Origin: an uncultured bacterium
GTDB taxonomy: Bacteria > Oederibacteriota > PGYV01 > CAWJRG01
Assembly (NCBI GenBank): GCA_963845185.1
Contig: CAWJRG010000009.1
Span: forward strand, 160,001 to 224,000
Length of the DNA stretch: 64,000 bases
Direction of reading: 5' to 3'
The position numbers were made by a program. Below, one piece after another: positions 18,001-33,000 of the stretch (positions are counted from its first letter, which is position 1; each line of letters begins with the position of its first letter).

Positions 18001-21000
18001 GTTTTTTATTAACGGATTTTTTGAGTATAACTTTTTTTCATCACAGGTAGCCACGATATTCTGGTTCATTACGGGCGCAGGCCTGGCAATAAACAACCTT
18101 TTTGCCTCAGGCTGGAAAGAAGAAACTGAGCAGGCCGGGGAAATAACGGCAGCAAAAGAATGAAAATTGAAATTGATAAATTACACCGCGCTTTGATAAT
18201 CAGGCCGCGGGCCATAGGCGATATATTGCTTACGACGCCTTTCATAAGAGCTTTAAAAAAACGTATCCCCGGCATAAAAATAGACTATTTATGCGAGCCG
18301 ATGGGGTTGCCGATACTTGAAAACAACCCTTATCTGTCAGATGTCATTGTATATGAAAAAAATAAGTTGAAAAAAATGGCTCCTTCTGTCAAAATGATGG
18401 AAACTGCAAGATTTTACAATGGTTTAAGGGCAAGAAAATACGATATTGTTTTCGACCTTTTCGGGAATTTGAGGACCGCCTTAATGAGTTTTTTGACAGG
18501 CGCCAGATACAGAGCCGGATTCACCTTCAGGGGAAGGAAAATCTTTTATAATATTAGGGTAAAACCCGACCGTGCACCAAAGTATAATGTTTATTATCAT
18601 ATGGACCTTCTAAAGGCCATAAACGTGCAGGATGACGGCGAAAAAATGGATTTTTATTTTGGAAATGAAGAAAAAGCATATATCAGCAATTTCTTTAAAA
18701 GCAAGCGCATAAGCGACAAAGACCTGATTGTAGGCATAAATCCGGCGGGTTCATGGCCGACAAAAAGGTGGCCGGAACAAAAATTTTCAACCCTTGCAGA
18801 CAGGATTATTGAGGATTTAAAAGGCGTAAAAATAATAGTGCTGTGGGGTCCAAACGAGGAGGCCATGGCAGAGCTCGTCGTTTCAGGCATAAAAAACGAC
18901 AAGTCAGATGTATATATCGCGCCGGAGACAAGCATAAAGCAGCTTGGCGCGCTGATTGAAAAAATAAAAGTACTTGTAACAAACGACGGCGCTCCAAAAC
19001 ACATAGCAGACGCGCTTGGCACGCCGACAGTAGCCATTTTCGGGCCGACCAATTACAAGTCTTGGAACCCGGCGAACAGCGAGATACATACGGCAGTCAC
19101 AGGCGGGGAGGCCTGCGCGCCGTGCGACAAGACAGAGTGCAGCAATATCAGGTGCATGGAGTCTGTTACGACCGCGGAAGTATTCGGGCATGTGAAGCGG
19201 ATGCTGAAATTATAAATTTTGGGATCACAACCGGTAATCTAAAATAAAAGACAGGAGGTTTTGCGCCATGGTGGAAGTTGATATAGACAAAATACTTGAA
19301 AACAGCGAGAAAAAAGAAGTCAAGGAAAAGGCAAAATCAAAAACTAAATTTTTCATTATACTGGGAGCCGCAGTTTTAATAGCGGCGGGGATAATTTCGC
19401 TTGTGACAATAACAATTATCGGAGAATCAAGCGCGGCATACATGCCATTTGTCAACGGGGCAAAATACACTTATAACAGGTCGGGCAAAAGCCCTGAGGA
19501 ATGGAACACGATGGAAAAAACAAAGAATATAGACGGTTACGTTTGCCAGGGCATAAACAAGGTCGACAAGGGCACAAACCTTTCATACCAGGATTACTAC
19601 TGTGTGGGCAAGTCCGGCATAGTGCGGATAGCTTATTCCGAGAATTTCGGGCAGATAAAAGAATCGCCTTTCGGGATTCTCCCTGGCAGGATCAAGGCAG
19701 GCAAGGAATTCGAGGCCGGTAATATCAAGGACAAGATAGTTTACGCTAAGATACTGGCAAAGGAGAAAGTATCAACGCCTGTGGGCGTCATAGAAGCGTT
19801 GAAAGTGGAATACAGCGCAGAACCTTATTATCATAAAACAGTCTGGTACGGCAAAGGGATTGGCGTAATAAAAGAAGTGAATGACCTGACCAACGAGGAG
19901 AGGTCAATTATCAACGTGGTGAATTAATGCAGATTAAAAAACAGATTTTCGGAAAGGATTTCATGTTTTACCTTGCGGGGATATGCATATTCCTTACGGT
20001 TGTTTCTTTTTCAATAGTCATCGTAAATATAAAAAGAACCGCGGCAGACAACAACAGCCGTATGGAAGTATATGCGGACGAATACATGAAACTGGCGGCC
20101 GTTTACAATAAGATGACAAATTTCAACGAGACGCTTAAATATGTGGCGTGGCTTAAGCAGGAATACCCAAAGAAGTTTTACTACAAAAATTACGCGGGCA
20201 TAAACGATATAATCGCGCTGGCTTCCAAGCTAAGCGATGAGAATGCCAAAAAGACCATAATGGATTTTACGGCCCCTTACAGGAAATTCGACGTGAACAC
20301 AATACCCCTTAAAGATTTAAGGGAAAAAATAAAAAGCAACATTGCGGTAATAAAAACAGTTGACGGCACTGCAAGCAAAACAGGGGAAGAAATTAGGGCC
20401 CTTGCCGGCCGGGGCGGCAGCGCGGGCATGGTTATGTATCTTTTTTTCCTGGAACTTATAATTGTGCTGGCGCTCAGTATTTGGTCGGTTTTTCATTATT
20501 TGCAGGCAAGCGGGCTGATGAAGAAATTTTTCGAGAGAGATTTTGACATAAGCGGCCTTGACGACGAGTTTTTAAGCGTATTCGACATCGGGGAGGACAA
20601 AAGCAGGTTCTTCAGCAACGTGAAGAAGCTGCGGAACAATTTTTTTGTCATCGGCAACGAGTTTAAGACAATGCAGGAAATGTTCAGGACAATAATAACG
20701 TCGTTTAACGAGGTTTCCAGCACGGCAGATGCGATTTCAAACGCGACGCAGGACCTTTCAAAAAAAGTAACAGGCTACAGCGAGAGCGTAAAAAACACCA
20801 AACAGATTACCGAGAAAATAGCGGATGACATAGAGCAAATCAGGGTTGACACGAACGCAGGCGCGGAAAACAGCAAAAAAATGGATTTGACGGCCAAGGA
20901 AGGCGAGGATTCCATAAACAGCATAATAAACGAGATTAACAATATATACAAAGTGGCCAACGAGCTTGAGCAGGTTGTCCTGCACCTGGGAGGCAAGACC

Positions 21001-30000: not shown

Positions 30001-33000
30001 TCTCTACATCCGCGGAGGCCTGGCTAAACAGCACTAATGCAAATACCACAACATATATTGATTCGGTCATGAATCCCACAAGTGTTTCATCGGTTGCAAA
30101 TATTTCTACTGTTTATTCCTACAATGTGGGAGCGAGTAATACCATTACCGGCTATTCAAGCTTTTCGAACACTGCTACAGCCTCTGCCTTTGTAGGGCCG
30201 AACTCAAGCACTTTACAACATATAGTCTTTACAAATGTAAGCGGCAATGTGCTTATCACCTGGGATAATCCAAACACGATATGTTCATATTCTTTAACTG
30301 GGTATAACATATACAGGAGTACAACAACCGCTGTTATAAATGGCAATAATGAACCTGTTTTCAGCCCAATGCCGATAACAAATCTGGCTTATCCTGCCAA
30401 TAATTATCTTGATACAGGCCTTAACGCGAATACGACTTATTATTATGAAGTGCAACTGGTGGATTCTGCAGGGAATTCCTATACTTCAACATATACTGGG
30501 TTTTATGTGGATTCTGTCCTGCCGCCGCCTCCTGAAGTAGTAGCCATATCCCAGCCCAGCCAGGTTACGCTTGAATGGAGATTAATCAATGCATCAATTA
30601 TTTCTTACAACATATACAGGAGAACAGCATCGGGTGTTTACACATCAGCTATATACAGTGAAAAGAATGCGCTTAAAAGTCAATACACAGACGCAGACGT
30701 TATTCCAAAAACAACATATTATTATACAGTAGCTGCGGTAAATGACGCGGGCGAAGGCCCAAAATCACAGGAAGTTTTTGCGACTCCTTACCTGCCGCTG
30801 CTGGTGCCTGCAAATTCGGGCGAGGCTATAAATATTATTAACAAGAAAGATATTTCATTATCTTGGGCCCAGGCAGTGAGCGTTACCGTCGATTCGAAAG
30901 GCAATACTTACATGAGCAGTTTCGGCATAAGCGGCTATAATGTTTACAGGAGCAATGACAACGGCGGAACCTATACTTGCATTACATTTTTGGCAGGCGC
31001 TGCAAATACCAGTTTTACAGACTATACCACGGCGTGGGGTAGTGATTATCTTTACGAAATTATTGCCATGGACACGGCAGGAAACCTTGACGCAATATAC
31101 CCGGTTATGTCAAAAGGCATACCAAAGACAGCCAATAAATTAATGATATACGCGAATATGATTAATTTAAGCAAGAGCCAGGCATTGACATGGAATTACG
31201 AAGTCATAAGGTCGGACAACATGAAAGTGATTGTTTATACCTTAAGCGGGCAGATGGTAAAAAAATTGTTTGACGGCAGCCCGCCATCCGGCGCTGACCC
31301 GGGCAATCCGCTTGACGGGTGGTCAGGCCAACCGCCACCCGGTTTTATCTGGGACGGAAAAAATTCATACGGCCAAAAAGTGGCGTCCGGAGCATATATA
31401 ATAATGATGGAATTCAAGGACTGGAAAACAACGTATAAAGTGGCGGTTGTAAAGTAGGAAACGCGCATAAATGCGATAAATAGGCGATGAAAAACCATTG
31501 TTTTTTCCATTGCAAAAAAACATTTTAAAATAGTCCAAACTATAATATTTTCAGGAGGGAATAGTGGCAAAAATTCAGGTTTTGCCGGAAAATGTGGCAA
31601 ACCAGATAGCGGCAGGCGAGGTAATAACAAGGCCTGCTTCCTGCGTTAAGGAACTGCTGGAAAACGCAATTGACGCGGGCGCGTCAAGCATATCGATAAA
31701 AATAGAAAATGCCGGGAAAAAACTGATAGAAGTGAAAGACAACGGCGAAGGCATGTCGGGCGAAGACGCGAAAAAAGCTTTTCTGCGCCACGCAACAAGC
31801 AAGATAAAAAGCATAGAAGACCTGAATTACATAGAAACCCTGGGTTTCAGGGGCGAGGCGCTGGCTTCAATCGCGGCGGTGTCATGGGTTGAGCTGCTCA
31901 CGAGGGACAGCAATGATGACACTGGCATATACCTGGAAATGAAAGCCGGCCAGGTAAAAAAAACCGAAGAAAGAGCCACTAATACGGGAACAATAATCAA
32001 AGTAAGGGATTTATTTTACAATACGCCTGCCAGGCTGAAATTTTTAAAATCAAACTACACCGAAGAAACCCACATAATAGACATGGTCACGGCAGAGGGG
32101 TTCGCGCGCGATAATGTATCCATAAATTTACAGATTGACTCGAAAGAGACAATATTTTTCCCGCAAAAAAGCTCGTTAAAGGACAGGATAAGGATTATAT
32201 ACGGCAGGGACATTTATGAATCGCTTGTCGGGATAAAAAATTTTTCCGACAACGTAAAAGTGTACGGGTACATAACGAAACCGGGGATAACAAAAAACAC
32301 AAGGAATTTCCAGTTTTTATTCGTAAACAGGCGCAGCGTCCAGAACAAAGCCGTAATGTACGCGATACACGAGGGCTACGGGACTTTCCTCATGAAAGGC
32401 AAATACCCGGTGGCCTTTATATTCGTGGACGTAAACCCTGCGCTTGTAGACGTGAACGTGCACCCTACCAAGGCTGAAGTCAAATTCAGGGATGAAAGGG
32501 CAGTATTCAACGCAGTAAAAAAAGCAATCGAAGACAGCCTCGCGTCTTCCGAGCTTGCACCACAGATAACAGCCCCCGGCGGTTTTGGCACGCGGCCCTC
32601 AGGGGACATGGTGGAGCAGGCAAAAAACTCGGTAAAGGATTCGATAAAGGAATTTTTTGTGTCCGAATCCAGCCCGCTTTTCAAGGAAAACAGGGCATAT
32701 GCATCCGGAGCGAAAGCGCCAAAAGTACTGCAGTCGGAAAAAAGGAAATTTTTATGGCTTAAGGCACTGGGCCAGGTGCATAAGACCTACCTTGTCGGAG
32801 AGGACGATGAAAACCTGGTTTTAATAGACCAGCACGCGGCCCACGAGAAAACCCTTTATGAAAAACTGTGGAAGGAAATAAACTCGGCGAAAGTTAAAAT
32901 CCAGAACATGCTCATACCAGATACGATTGAAGTCACGCCGGCTGAGGCTCTAATAATAAAAAATAACACGGATGTTTTCGAAAAGACCGGGTTTGTGGTG

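Follow-up and report, generated by a model that had tools for sequence, protein, structure and literature searches.

How could proteins with type IX secretion system (T9SS) sorting tails leave a cell in which an outer-membrane pore gene is recognisable and the motor that should serve it is not? This question is raised by an operon in a 64,000-nucleotide window (contig CAWJRG010000009.1, positions 160,001 to 224,000) of an uncultured bacterium of the phylum Oederibacteriota, order PGYV01. A first-pass annotation had read this operon as part of a type IX-like pathway without a detectable motor; every testable element of that reading was reproduced here, and the reading itself is supported.

A diverged SprA/Sov-type pore gene in a conserved operon

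The four operon genes were recovered with the coordinates, strand and lengths given before. They are listed with their neighbours, with positions counted along the window:

16919..18163, + strand: O-antigen ligase-like gene (Wzy_C; Pfam 6.6e-19)
18160..19215, + strand: GT9 heptosyltransferase (Pfam 5.1e-42)
19268..19927, + strand: g01293, 219 aa, inner-membrane-anchored, with a predicted LolA/RseB/YmcC-like open beta-barrel domain (AlphaFold2 and Foldseek)
19927..21564, + strand: g01294, 545 aa, methyl-accepting chemotaxis protein-like transducer with two TM helices (PF00015 MCPsignal, 4.8e-39)
21574..28011, + strand: g01295, 2145 aa, diverged SprA/Sov-type outer-membrane translocon homologue (TIGR04189 and hhalign)
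28047..31457, + strand: g01296, 1136 aa, predicted secreted fn3-array protein with a C-terminal T9SS-type beta-sandwich tail (Pfam and tail profile)
31564..33327, + strand: mutL (MutL_C 2.6e-38, DNA_mis_repair 1.1e-37), downstream edge of the conserved block

Against the NCBIfam SprA model TIGR04189, g01295 scores 183.7 bits (E 3.6e-54), just below the 200-bit cut-off, which explains the absence of an annotation row. Only a sub-threshold fn3 match was returned by the Pfam scan, and the PF14349 match formerly reported at E 0.003 was absent from it at E<=1. Among 7,999 candidates scored by phmmer, 56 relatives were found, and these grade into proteins named 'cell surface protein SprA' by their source (e.g., P0042, E 5.5e-20). 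An hhalign comparison of 14 relatives with 10 canonical SprA sequences gave a probability of 100% and E 7.5e-100 over 1088 columns, with positions 372-1537 of the g01295-family query aligned to positions 226-1506 (of 2317) of the SprA template. A signal peptide and a linker rich in Ser, Ala and Thr open the protein, about three fn3-like domains occupy its N-terminal part (residues ~95-420), and the SprA-homologous part starts at about residue 420. A genome search returned g01295 as the only SprA-like locus, and of 61 phylum genomes sampled, 59 contain a relative, while the other two are 91% and 89% complete. These comparisons bear out the earlier assignment and show g01295 to be, as judged from sequence, a true SprA/Sov homologue that is strongly diverged, single-copy and retained across the phylum.

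The claim that the gene occurs throughout order PGYV01 (24 of 24 genomes) agrees with our sample, where 12 of 12 same-order genomes (own genome counted) carry it. Conservation of the operon was likewise recovered: the order g01293-(g01294)-g01295-g01296-mutL is retained in all eight same-order loci inspected (mutL downstream in 8/8), with the MCP gene g01294 in four of them, the GT9 gene upstream of g01293 in eight and the Wzy_C gene in six. Outside the order, a divergent lptF-lptG pair stands at 10 of 12 pore loci, with LpxA/LpxI close by.

An AlphaFold2 model of g01293 from a 9-sequence alignment (pLDDT 84, pTM 0.73) consists of an N-terminal helix (residues 6-51) followed by 12 strands over residues 66-218, and its Foldseek matches in the PDB include 4fvs (E 4.7e-6), the YmcC-like fold 3fzx (6.5e-5) and RseB, MucB, VioE and LolA-like chains; Pfam adds a weak DUF3108_like match (E 0.014). 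While the fold is similar to that of LolA/LolB/RseB/YmcC-like proteins, g01293 differs from them in its N-terminal membrane anchor, low TM-scores (0.3-0.4) and order-specific occurrence: it is found in 8/8 same-order loci, and BLAST clustering placed it beside the pore gene in none of 12 loci elsewhere in the phylum. A role as a motor part or GldM-like protein was rejected in view of this fold and of the position of the operon among LPS genes. Both g01293 and the adjoining LPS genes are more likely concerned with envelope lipid or LPS handling than with a transport step. The genome that encodes the transducer g01294 also encodes flagellar proteins (FlgE, MotA/MotB, FliL, FliM). As for g01296, Pfam detects fn3 in five stretches (3e-19) and FlgD_ig at residues 1100-1122 (7e-4), and an in-genome tail profile matches residues 1035-1132 (E 1.5e-14). 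An fn3-rich gene lies directly 3' of the pore gene in 8/8 same-order and 6/12 other phylum loci, and g01296 is predicted to be conserved either as cargo of the pore or as its partner at the surface.

Tailed proteins and their PorV-family neighbours

The window contributes further tailed proteins and one PorV-family gene:

1..5104, + strand: 3' part of a large tailed protein whose ORF starts before the window (TIGR04183 37.7 bits, 4853-5074)
5291..10225, + strand: tailed 1644-aa protein, cargo of the window's cargo-carrier pair (no Pfam family; tail profile at residues 1549-1635, E 6.7e-18)
10784..12673, + strand: 629-aa protein with a PorV-family barrel (residues 33-315), an FlgD_ig-like domain and a C-terminal extension (NF033709 105.7 bits, over cut-off, window positions 10871-11728; FlgD_ig 2.3e-11, residues 353-421)
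54304..58968, + strand: 1554-aa NHL-repeat beta-propeller with a type A tail (NHL 4.6e-147; Por_Secre_tail 2.8e-7, residues 1469-1542; TIGR04183 41.2 bits at 58708-58923)

Across six frames of the genome (completeness 99.38%), TIGR04183 yields 88 tail matches at E<=1e-3, 84 of them over cut-off; the existence of many tailed proteins was thus borne out, in numbers above the former counts of 44 and 52. An iterated in-genome profile returned 149 ORFs with a C-terminal tail (107 with a hydrophobic N-terminus), although this profile is broad and may take in non-signal Ig-like domains. Overall, the searches show about 85-150 predicted proteins with T9SS-type C-terminal beta-sandwich tails.

The PorV family gave 40 matches, and 29 genes over cut-off were counted, as before; the family is expanded in all 61 phylum genomes (8-32 matches each). 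Sixteen of the matches, read by eye, are preceded by a same-strand TIGR04183 match ending <=420 bp upstream, or 18 if matches to just the tail part of the PorU model are counted too, and with in-genome profiles 23 of 38 PorV ORFs stand behind a tailed ORF (expected 1.57, maximum 6 in 2000 random draws). The 14 PorV paralogues first placed directly 3' of a tailed cargo gene hence become 16-24, depending on method, with about 1.6 expected by chance. These counts show about 29-38 predicted PorV-family barrels, about half of them encoded directly behind a tailed gene. The pairing is partial, since some 125 of the 149 tailed ORFs lack a PorV neighbour and 14-15 PorV genes lack a cargo gene next to them. 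Paired cargoes resemble secreted enzymes or adhesins (S8 subtilase, CBM9, CBM3/6, propellers and Big_1 giants). Among 14 long PorV forms and the window's own gene, the barrel is fused to OmpA in five, to TPR in six and to fn3 in two.

Co-diversification of cargo and PorV was assessed in 23 pairs, in 12 of which the nearest neighbours agree. The Mantel correlation is 0.75 (0 of 5000 permutations as high; Spearman 0.05) and falls to 0.33 for PorV identity < 50%; the signal is carried by a few recent duplicates, and co-duplication alone could explain it. On the PorV tree, five of the six carriers of Por_Secre_tail cargo fall in one clade (support 96/92), and the tail-class labels can be placed with 8 changes, where shuffled labels average 12.5 (0 of 200 shuffles as low), which shows PorV clades to follow the predicted tail class of the neighbouring cargo. 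When one PorV paralogue was modelled together with the tail of the cargo encoded upstream of it, the predicted complex reached an ipSAE of 0.69 (best of three controls 0.00); at least 89% of contacts agreed between runs, and partner pLDDT was at least 74. Among solved complexes, 51 of 78 pass the mark applied; among mismatched pairs, 2 of 108 do. As PorV-tail complexes have already been solved, this pass may reflect mere likeness.

Searches for motor, ring, sortase and type B shuttle

In six frames of the genome, GldL, GldM and GldN gave no match at E<=1, repeating the earlier null result, and GldL was over cut-off in none of the 61 phylum genomes. The best GldK match reaches 45.2 bits against a cut-off of 350; the GldK matches look like the generic FGE-sulfatase type, again as annotated. 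The searches further point to an absence of PorU and PorP/SprF, which is new relative to the first-pass annotation: only the tail part of the PorU model matches in this genome, none of the 61 phylum genomes has PorU over cut-off (10 first-look candidates scored per genome), and PorP_SprF stays at 18.1 bits, below its cut-off of 22.3. A scan for GldL/GldM-shaped adjacent gene pairs produced three candidates, two of which were rejected (SecG with a solute-binding protein; YcxB with a flavoenzyme).

A control sample of 121 genomes labelled as Bacteroidota phylum shows that the search works, GldL being over cut-off in 29 (64-256 bits); PorU was found in 87. Nevertheless, missing HMM matches are not proof, and either real absence or limited model reach would fit. 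Within this sample 96 genomes bear SprA, and 67 of these have no GldL match, so that the lack of a motor is not special to the Oederibacteriota lineage. PorU is kept in 64 of the 67, whereas GldK is over cut-off in none of 17 tested and GldM in none of 12; in all 12 named genomes labelled Ignavibacteria, Melioribacteraceae or Kryptoniota, SprA is present with GldL, GldK and GldM undetected. What is peculiar to the present lineage, as far as these searches indicate, is the divergence of the pore, the failure to detect PorU, the strong cargo-PorV pairing and the PorV-TPR/OmpA/fn3 fusions.

A proposed reduced pathway and its alternatives

We consider, with a probability of roughly 0.6, that this block encodes the pore by which a reduced, type IX-like pathway would export proteins across the outer membrane; that secretion takes place, and what powers it, we infer from sequence. 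Tailed proteins would be carried over the inner membrane by Sec, the cargo tail would engage the SprA-like pore, and there it would be passed to a PorV-family barrel, as in Flavobacterium, with many cargoes bringing their own PorV paralogue. Because no PorU-type sortase was detected and many paralogues are extended in the periplasm by TPR, OmpA (peptidoglycan-binding) or fn3 domains, we propose that the PorV-cargo complex is not recycled but remains in the outer membrane and anchors its cargo permanently, resembling type B cargo held by PorP/SprF-PorE in Bacteroidia. With no GldL/M motor or GldK/N ring detectable, release from the pore would have to be driven otherwise, and such a different step is also called for by the account in PMC10994853 of Flavobacterium, where motor removal leaves cargo trapped on the translocon. 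Stoichiometric, single-use carriers together with folding outside the cell may supply it, or an unrecognised energiser may. If true, this would be protein export by a simpler form of the type IX system, outside Bacteroidota.

The last option shades into a somewhat unlikely alternative, a type IX-like system energised by a non-homologous or unrecognised inner-membrane machine, e.g., an ExbB-ExbD-TonB set replacing GldLM/GldKN and acting on the pore or on the PorV-TPR/OmpA fusions, whose periplasmic domains could dock it. Cargo release needs energy in Flavobacterium, as far as described in PMC10994853, and two intact ExbB-(ExbD)-TonB clusters are encoded in the genome, both of them close to genes for a large TPR protein and an outer-membrane barrel, although TonB systems near such proteins are an ordinary nutrient-uptake arrangement. 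A third cluster lies 15 kb upstream of the window; it is co-directional and comprises a tailed 1671-aa protein, PorV-like, TPR, TPR, ExbB, ExbD, ExbD and TonB, but may be decaying, as its PorV-like gene and ExbB are both frameshifted. Moreover, inspection of 20 relative loci showed none with a TonB-related gene linked to that of the pore.

We regard it as improbable that the system is a complete, canonical-type T9SS whose GldL, GldM, GldN, GldK and PorU have diverged too far for library models. Even the pore does not reach the curated cut-off for its own family, which shows the drift of this lineage, the same models failed in Rhodothermales according to the first-pass annotation, and control GldL matches drop to about 64 bits, split in two pieces. 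Against this stand the null results for GldL, GldM and GldN at E<=1 in a 99.4%-complete genome and for GldL over cut-off in 61 phylum genomes, the low score of GldK, whose FGE-sulfatase-type core is well conserved, and the assignment of two of the three GldL/GldM-shaped pairs to other functions. GldL and GldK are also missing from genomes whose SprA is near-canonical (2000-2600 bits) and accompanied by a canonical PorU-PorV pair, so divergence alone does not explain the pattern. More improbable still, the SprA-like barrel would be an LPS-tied component of envelope biogenesis and no export pore, with tails and PorV-like barrels independent of it; the WaaL-like ligase and heptosyltransferase upstream, the lptF-lptG and LpxA/LpxI neighbours outside the order and the LolA/RseB-like g01293 would suit this. 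It is opposed by homology over ~1100 SprA columns, by the tailed fn3 protein that 14 of 20 relative loci encode directly 3' of the pore gene and by the co-occurrence of pore, PorV family and tails across the phylum, and the analysis identified no other known way for tailed proteins to pass the outer membrane.

Comparison with known systems

The reduced pathway that we favour is best viewed against the T9SS of F. johnsoniae and P. gingivalis, with its SprA/Sov pore, PorV shuttle, GldLM/PorLM motor, GldKN/PorKN ring and PorU sortase. Shared with it are a homologous giant pore, C-terminal beta-sandwich tails (TIGR04183, PF18962), the PorV/PorQ barrel family and, as predicted here, PorV-tail docking. 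Unlike it, this genome has a pore below family cut-offs with N-terminal fn3-like domains, and no GldL/M/N, credible GldK, PorU or PorP/SprF was detected. Dozens of PorV paralogues contrast with the one PorV shuttle that PMC12618676, where it treats type A tails, describes for all of them, and the relevant passages of PMC11285876 and PMC4793230 do not list the host phylum among those with T9SS.

SprA without detectable GldK/L/M is shared with the Ignavibacteria-, Melioribacteraceae- and Kryptoniota-labelled sets, and for such sets combining SprA, PorU and PorV we found no match in print. PorV expansion also occurs in GldL-less SprA sets (median 11 vs. 3 matches); however, the GldL-less genomes of the Bacteroidota sample have a canonical SprA (570-2630 bits) and mostly retain PorU, and in a complete Ignavibacteriaceae genome only about 1 of 13 PorV genes lies behind a tail, a much weaker pairing than here.

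A further analogy is the type B scheme, in which, as outlined in the corresponding parts of PMC12618676 and PMC9143113, a cognate PorP/SprF barrel is encoded beside, and is specific to, its cargo, which is held at the surface by that barrel linked to a TPR/OmpA peptidoglycan-binding protein. The PorV-cargo pairing resembles this in placing the carrier gene beside the cargo and, as proposed, in anchoring. It differs in that the barrels belong to the PorV family rather than PorP/SprF, most of the tails are of type A or resemble FlgD_ig, and the TPR/OmpA module, a separate PorE in the type B scheme, is here fused to the barrel in one polypeptide.

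The SprA-type pore gene and its operon

The window covers G000 C9:160001-224000, and the block within it comprises four co-directional ORFs, whose positions coincide exactly with those reported in the first-pass annotation:

19268-19927 (+): g01293, 219 aa, protein with a predicted N-terminal helix and beta domain
19927-21564 (+): g01294, 545 aa, chemoreceptor (MCP)
21574-28011 (+): g01295, 2145 aa, SprA/Sov homologue (pore)
28047-31457 (+): g01296, 1136 aa, fn3-rich protein with a C-terminal tail

Comparison of g01295 with the NCBIfam model of the T9SS translocon Sov/SprA (TIGR04189) yielded matches in six stretches (E 3.6e-54, 183.7 bits), and the absence of any annotation is explained by this score falling just below the curated cut-off of 200 bits. 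In Pfam the sole listing for this protein is a sub-threshold fn3, and a match to PF14349 claimed earlier (E 0.003) did not reappear in our Pfam scan at E<=1. A word-seeded phmmer search with residues 430-2145 (7,999 candidates scored) returned 56 proteins at E<=1e-3, which form a graded series with unnamed proteins of similar length as the nearest (65-36% identity), including proteins labelled by their source as Elusimicrobia and Coatesbacteria, and reaching proteins named "cell surface protein SprA" (e.g., P0042, E 5.5e-20). Profile-profile alignment by hhalign of 14 relatives of g01295 (A4) with 10 canonical SprA sequences (A3) gave a probability of 100% and E 7.5e-100 over 1088 columns (query 372-1537, template 226-1506 of 2317), the last 600 residues finding no alignment to canonical SprA; a phmmer comparison of the pore with PDB sequences gave no match at E<=0.01. 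All six TIGR04189 matches of the genome fall in a single frame, that of g01295. Taken together with the model score, the graded relatives and the profile alignment, this identifies g01295 as a real, single-copy and strongly diverged SprA homologue, as originally proposed.

Of 61 genomes that represent the phylum in our sample, 59 contain a relative of the pore (45/46 of those of high quality), the two genomes lacking a match being 91% and 89% complete. All 12 same-order genomes, own genome included, are among the 59, in line with the 24 of 24 counted previously. To describe its neighborhood, 20 relative loci were fetched (eight from the same order and 12 from other families of the phylum) and their ORFs clustered by BLAST. 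The gene order is kept in all eight same-order loci, upholding the claim of an operon conserved across the order: TPR protein, LacI-type regulator, (O-antigen-ligase-like protein), GT9 heptosyltransferase, g01293-like protein, (MCP), pore, fn3-rich protein and mutL, usually followed by miaA, with the MCP gene present in four of eight. Among the 12 loci outside the order (L111-L122), BLAST clustering revealed no relative of g01293; an lptF-lptG pair stands upstream of, and head-to-head with, the pore gene in 10, LpxA and LpxI are found near this pair in several, and a giant fn3-rich protein directly follows the pore gene in six. Thus, the stable unit is the pore plus a tailed fn3 array, placed in an LPS-biogenesis neighborhood. 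As a separate observation, a LytTR two-component pair directly precedes the pore gene in two of the loci outside the order (L121, L122).

With respect to the partner genes, g01296 contains at least five fn3 domains (Pfam), and its C-terminal residues 1035-1132 match the tail profile built within this genome (E 1.5e-14). For g01293, a confident fold was predicted from a nine-sequence alignment (pLDDT 84, pTM 0.73), in which a helix at the N-terminus (residues 6-51) precedes a beta domain of 12 strands, for which the top Foldseek match is a Parabacteroides lipoprotein (4fvs, E 4.7e-6), followed by 3fzx ("YmcC-like fold", 6.5e-5) and by RseB, MucB, VioE and LolA-like chains; the ESM Atlas provided sub-0.9 leads only (DUF3108, 0.83). 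We considered g01293 as a GldM-like link and rejected it by its size (219 aa), its predicted LolA/RseB-like fold and its restriction to the order. The product of g01294 is an ordinary-looking MCP (PF00015, 4.8e-39), and since FlgE, MotA/MotB, FliL and FliM are encoded in the genome, a chemoreceptor is not out of place here.

Sorting tails, PorV-family carriers and their pairing

A six-frame search of the genome (3.50 Mb in 11 contigs, 99.38% complete) for T9SS-type C-terminal sorting tails (TIGR04183) gave 88 matches at E<=1e-3, of which 84 exceed the cut-off, and the Pfam domain Por_Secre_tail is present both on proteins of the window and on paired cargo proteins. The same type of search with the PorV-family model (NF033709) gave 40 matches, with 29 genes over cut-off. 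Both results reproduce what had been noted before, namely T9SS-type tails on many proteins and 29 PorV/PorQ-family barrels. A complementary set of profiles was built within the genome by three rounds of hmmbuild/hmmsearch over 3044 called ORFs; it recovered 38 ORFs with a PorV-type barrel and 149 ORFs with a C-terminal tail-like domain, the latter by a broad profile that also takes FlgD_ig- and CHU_C-like tails.

The two approaches concur in placing many carriers next to cargo. By the library models, 16 PorV matches have a same-strand tail match ending at most 420 bp upstream, and the number of pairs rises to 18 when tail-only matches of the PorU model are added; by the ORF-based profiles, a tailed ORF immediately precedes the PorV ORF on its strand in 23 of 38 cases, as compared with a mean of 1.57 and a maximum of 6 in 2000 random draws. 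The 14 PorV genes directly downstream of tailed cargo in the first-pass annotation are exceeded by either count. The window has one such pair of its own:

5291-10225: tailed cargo protein
10784-12673: PorV-family gene

This pair is uncounted among the 23 because a spurious 72-aa ORF lies between its two genes. Elsewhere in the window, a 1554-aa protein (54304-58968, +) has about 14 NHL repeats along with further propeller matches, ends in a Por_Secre_tail, and has no adjoining PorV gene.

Among the 23 paired cargoes are an S8 subtilase, CBM9 and CBM3/CBM6 proteins, propellers, Big_1 giants and an F5/8-type-C protein, and their tails are classified by Pfam as FlgD_ig (8), Por_Secre_tail (6) and CHU_C (3), with nothing at E<=1e-5 for the remaining 6. 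Carriers and tails show traces of a shared history: the nearest neighbor of the carrier agrees with that of the tail in 12 of 23 pairs, and their distances are correlated by Mantel r (0.75, with 0/5000 permutations as high; 0.33 after near-duplicates were set aside) but not by Spearman (0.05). Six of the 23 barrels are carriers of Por_Secre_tail cargo, and a maximum-likelihood tree of all 23 groups five of these six in one clade (support 96/92); the four tail labels require eight changes on this tree vs. 12.5 when shuffled (0/200 as low). Such a history fits class-specific recognition, and also a plain co-duplication of modules.

Co-folding of one barrel (P0063) with the C-terminal 92 residues of its upstream F5/8-type-C-domain protein (P0064) gave an ipSAE of 0.69 vs. 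0.00 for the best control, with runs agreeing in at least 89% of contacts and a partner pLDDT of at least 74; the mark applied here is reached by 51 of 78 solved complexes and by 2 of 108 mismatched pairs. Because PorV-tail complexes have already been solved, the predicted complex would express likeness to known complexes, not proof of binding. The carriers are frequently elaborated: among 14 long PorV ORFs scanned, five have Ig-like plus OmpA peptidoglycan-binding domains, six have TPR repeats, two have fn3, and the remaining one has a FlgD_ig-like domain only, same as the PorV copy of the window.

Another tailed protein adjoining a carrier was observed at L145 (a locus of the same genome, C10). 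This 329-aa protein (L145:1131-2120, -, corresponding to G000 C10:234130-235119) is encoded directly upstream of a PorV-family gene (L145:122-1027, -). Besides a single TM helix it contains a periplasmic stretch of low complexity, and it ends in a FlgD_ig/T9SS-type tail (Pfam 3.5e-9), while its N-terminus has, by eye only, the look of a zinc-finger anti-sigma factor. By analogy with PorA, it could act as a sensor reporting carrier or pore activity to a sigma factor.

Search for the remaining components of the canonical system

The motor models GldL (TIGR03513) and GldM (TIGR03517) gave no match at E<=1 in six frames of the genome, and neither did the ring model GldN (TIGR03523), which was silent in all control genomes too, no Bacteroidia control having been run for this model. 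For GldK (TIGR03525) there are six matches of FGE-sulfatase type, the best with 45.2 bits vs. a cut-off of 350. The earlier statement that GldL, GldM and GldN are undetectable therefore stands, with the GldK matches being of sulfatase type only. Over the phylum sample, GldL is over cut-off in 0/61 genomes and so is the sortase PorU (10 candidates per genome scored), whereas the PorV family is found in 61/61 with 8-32 matches each. In the own genome, the PorU model (NF033707) meets cargo tails by its own tail part (about 956-1095) only, apart from one stretch of 30.7 bits. The type B shuttle model PorP_SprF (PF11751) reached 18.1 bits, below its cut-off of 22.3, inside a PorV-family ORF; it was marginally over cut-off in one of 13 order genomes and matched no control genome. 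In another genome of the same order, a 1508-aa frame at L148 (G164 C10:36202-40503) matches the peptidase part of the PorU model (360-731, 62 bits); judged by this sequence match, it may be a gingipain/C25-like protease and, with a score far below the PorU cut-off, not PorU.

A sequence-independent scan for the shape of GldL/GldM (a 2-TM protein of 150-400 aa adjoining a 1-TM protein of 300-750 aa) produced three candidate pairs in the own genome. Two were dismissed by their Pfam content (SecG with an SBP_bac_5 solute-binding protein, and YcxB with an FAD oxidoreductase); the third is located at G000 C9:889656-891421 (-) and encodes proteins of 250 aa and then 332 aa. Other stator-type proteins of the genome are the flagellar MotAB, two intact ExbB-TonB clusters and one frameshifted ExbB.

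Two side observations concern TonB-related genes. A co-directional cluster located about 15 kb upstream of the window (L130:961-14894, +, corresponding to G000 C9:130960-144893) encodes, in this order, a tailed 1671-aa protein, a PorV-like barrel with FlgD_ig, two TPR proteins (642 and 465 aa), ExbB, ExbD, ExbD, TonB (322 aa) and a 307-aa protein, with frameshifts interrupting both the PorV-like gene and ExbB; the cluster is either decaying or misassembled, or it gives a hint of a TonB-type energiser of the carriers. Within the window, a 346-aa protein (41436-42476, +) has a TonB-dependent-receptor Plug domain (9.6e-20) and no barrel domain in the same ORF, and may be a split or frameshifted receptor.

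Control genomes and the wider pattern

As the default control genomes have no T9SS, we assembled our own. The first set consisted of 12 genomes with canonical SprA, found through the A3 alignment at loci that are almost all of Ignavibacteria type (labelled Ignavibacteriaceae, Ignavibacterium, Melioribacteraceae, Kryptoniota, or, loosely, "Bacteroidetes", "Chlorobiaceae" and "Chromatiales"). GldL, GldK and GldM were each over cut-off in 0/12 of these, and weak GldL-model matches in two Ignavibacteria-type genomes turned out to be signal-peptide proteins, not 2-TM GldL. The second set was drawn, at a completeness of at least 90%, from the phylum (Bacteroidota) to which one genome of the first set (locus L014) belongs, and comprised 121 genomes.

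Components over cut-off in the 121-genome sample
Component: genomes
GldL (64-256 bits): 29/121
SprA: 96/121
PorU: 87/121
PorV family: 96/121

All 29 GldL-positive genomes carry SprA, so that 67 of 96 SprA-bearing genomes are without GldL over cut-off, and PorU is kept in 64 of these 67. GldK was over cut-off in none of five GldL-less genomes with near-canonical SprA (1688-2631 bits) and in 0/17 tested overall. PorV-family matches number 2-8 (median 3) in GldL-positive vs. 3-17 (median 11) in SprA-positive, GldL-negative genomes (at most 16 candidates per genome scored, the genomes being related and not independent), i.e., SprA-bearing genomes without GldL tend towards many PorV paralogues. These controls demonstrate that the searches work, and that, beyond the GldL-bearing part of that phylum, it is common for a pore to occur with neither motor nor ring detectable. 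In one complete Ignavibacteriaceae genome, a TIGR04183 match precedes a PorV gene at a distance of up to 400 bp in only one of 13 cases, the canonical porU-porV pair aside. In view of this and of the controls, the strong cargo pairing, the undetected PorU and the fused carriers are traits of the lineage of the window.

Discussion

In the accessible parts of the sources, the T9SS is described as a system of Bacteroidota: TXSScan detected it in no clade but the Bacteroidetes, where 60 of 97 genomes have it (PMC4793230), and for Fibrobacter, Melioribacter and Chitinispirillum it was the tails alone that were inferred or noted (PMC6851124, PMC3534657, PMC4814513). The one paper found on this candidate phylum has type IX secretion in its reference list only (PMC7031533). 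T9SS outside Bacteroidia is inferred from tails only in the searchable literature, where, supplements aside, we found neither a component-level account outside Bacteroidia nor a report of PorV paralogues dedicated to, or paired with, type A cargo; likewise, no report was found of SprA genomes that lack GldL and keep PorU.

In our reading, the block encodes the pore of a reduced type IX-like pathway (with a probability of about 0.6). The homology of g01295, the gene content, the carrier-cargo pairing and the absence of components by search stand as results. By inference, cargo would be exported through this pore, its tail would be recognized by the carrier, and anchoring would be permanent, the source of energy being likewise a matter of inference. 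The main difficulty for this reading comes from Flavobacterium, in which, according to PMC10994853, loading of cargo onto the pore is energy-free, yet cargo is trapped once the motor is removed. An energiser that is present and unrecognized, for example a TonB system such as the two intact ExbB-TonB clusters could supply, would answer to that trapping, and the L130 cluster is at most a lead in this direction given its interrupted ExbB; we consider this rather unlikely. That the motor genes exist and have diverged past detection is very improbable: the strong divergence of the pore itself speaks for it, but GldL, GldM and GldN gave no match at E<=1 in the own genome and GldL is over cut-off in none of the phylum genomes. 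An LPS-related role of the barrel, for which the neighborhood of lptF-lptG, LpxA and LpxI might speak, has to be set against SprA homology and the adjoining tailed fn3 array, and its likelihood appears slighter still.

Beyond the reduced-pathway reading, and as a tentative proposal that as a whole is more doubtful than not, the SprA pore, PorV carriers and tailed cargo may constitute an old, self-sufficient, motor-free export route, widespread beyond Bacteroidota and allies. For each cargo there would be a dedicated PorV paralogue, made in stoichiometric amounts, that pulls it out and from then on holds it permanently, with fused OmpA or TPR domains tying this carrier to the cell wall. Bacteroidia would later have added the GldLM motor, the GldKN ring and, in part, the PorU sortase, and these additions would have allowed one shared PorV to be recycled and secretion to be coupled to gliding.

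Overall, a question for type IX secretion is how inner-membrane energy drives cargo through and off the SprA pore. Lineages that have kept pore, carriers and tails without a detectable motor or ring (many, as judged by the controls; here also without a detectable sortase) offer a natural "minimal" version for comparison with the Bacteroidia machine. If this version is motor-free and working, it would show which steps truly need energy; if it relies on another energiser, identifying that energiser would uncover a new coupling. The pattern in the controls (67/96 GldL-less, 64/67 with PorU) is testable in cultured relatives. In addition, cargo-paired PorV paralogues fused to wall modules suggest a sortase-free anchoring of surface enzymes, which bears on the display of hydrolases by such uncultured polymer degraders.

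A comparison with known systems reveals both differences and parallels. Canonical PorV consists of the barrel alone and is about 390 aa long (as seen in open frames of the Bacteroidota-phylum sample), whereas long fused forms occur here. The OmpA and TPR additions on these carriers recall PorE, which acts together with PorP to keep type B cargo attached to the surface of Porphyromonas (PMC9143113), and the placement of a carrier gene beside its cargo gene recalls the cognate PorP/SprF shuttles of Flavobacterium, as they are described in PMC12618676.
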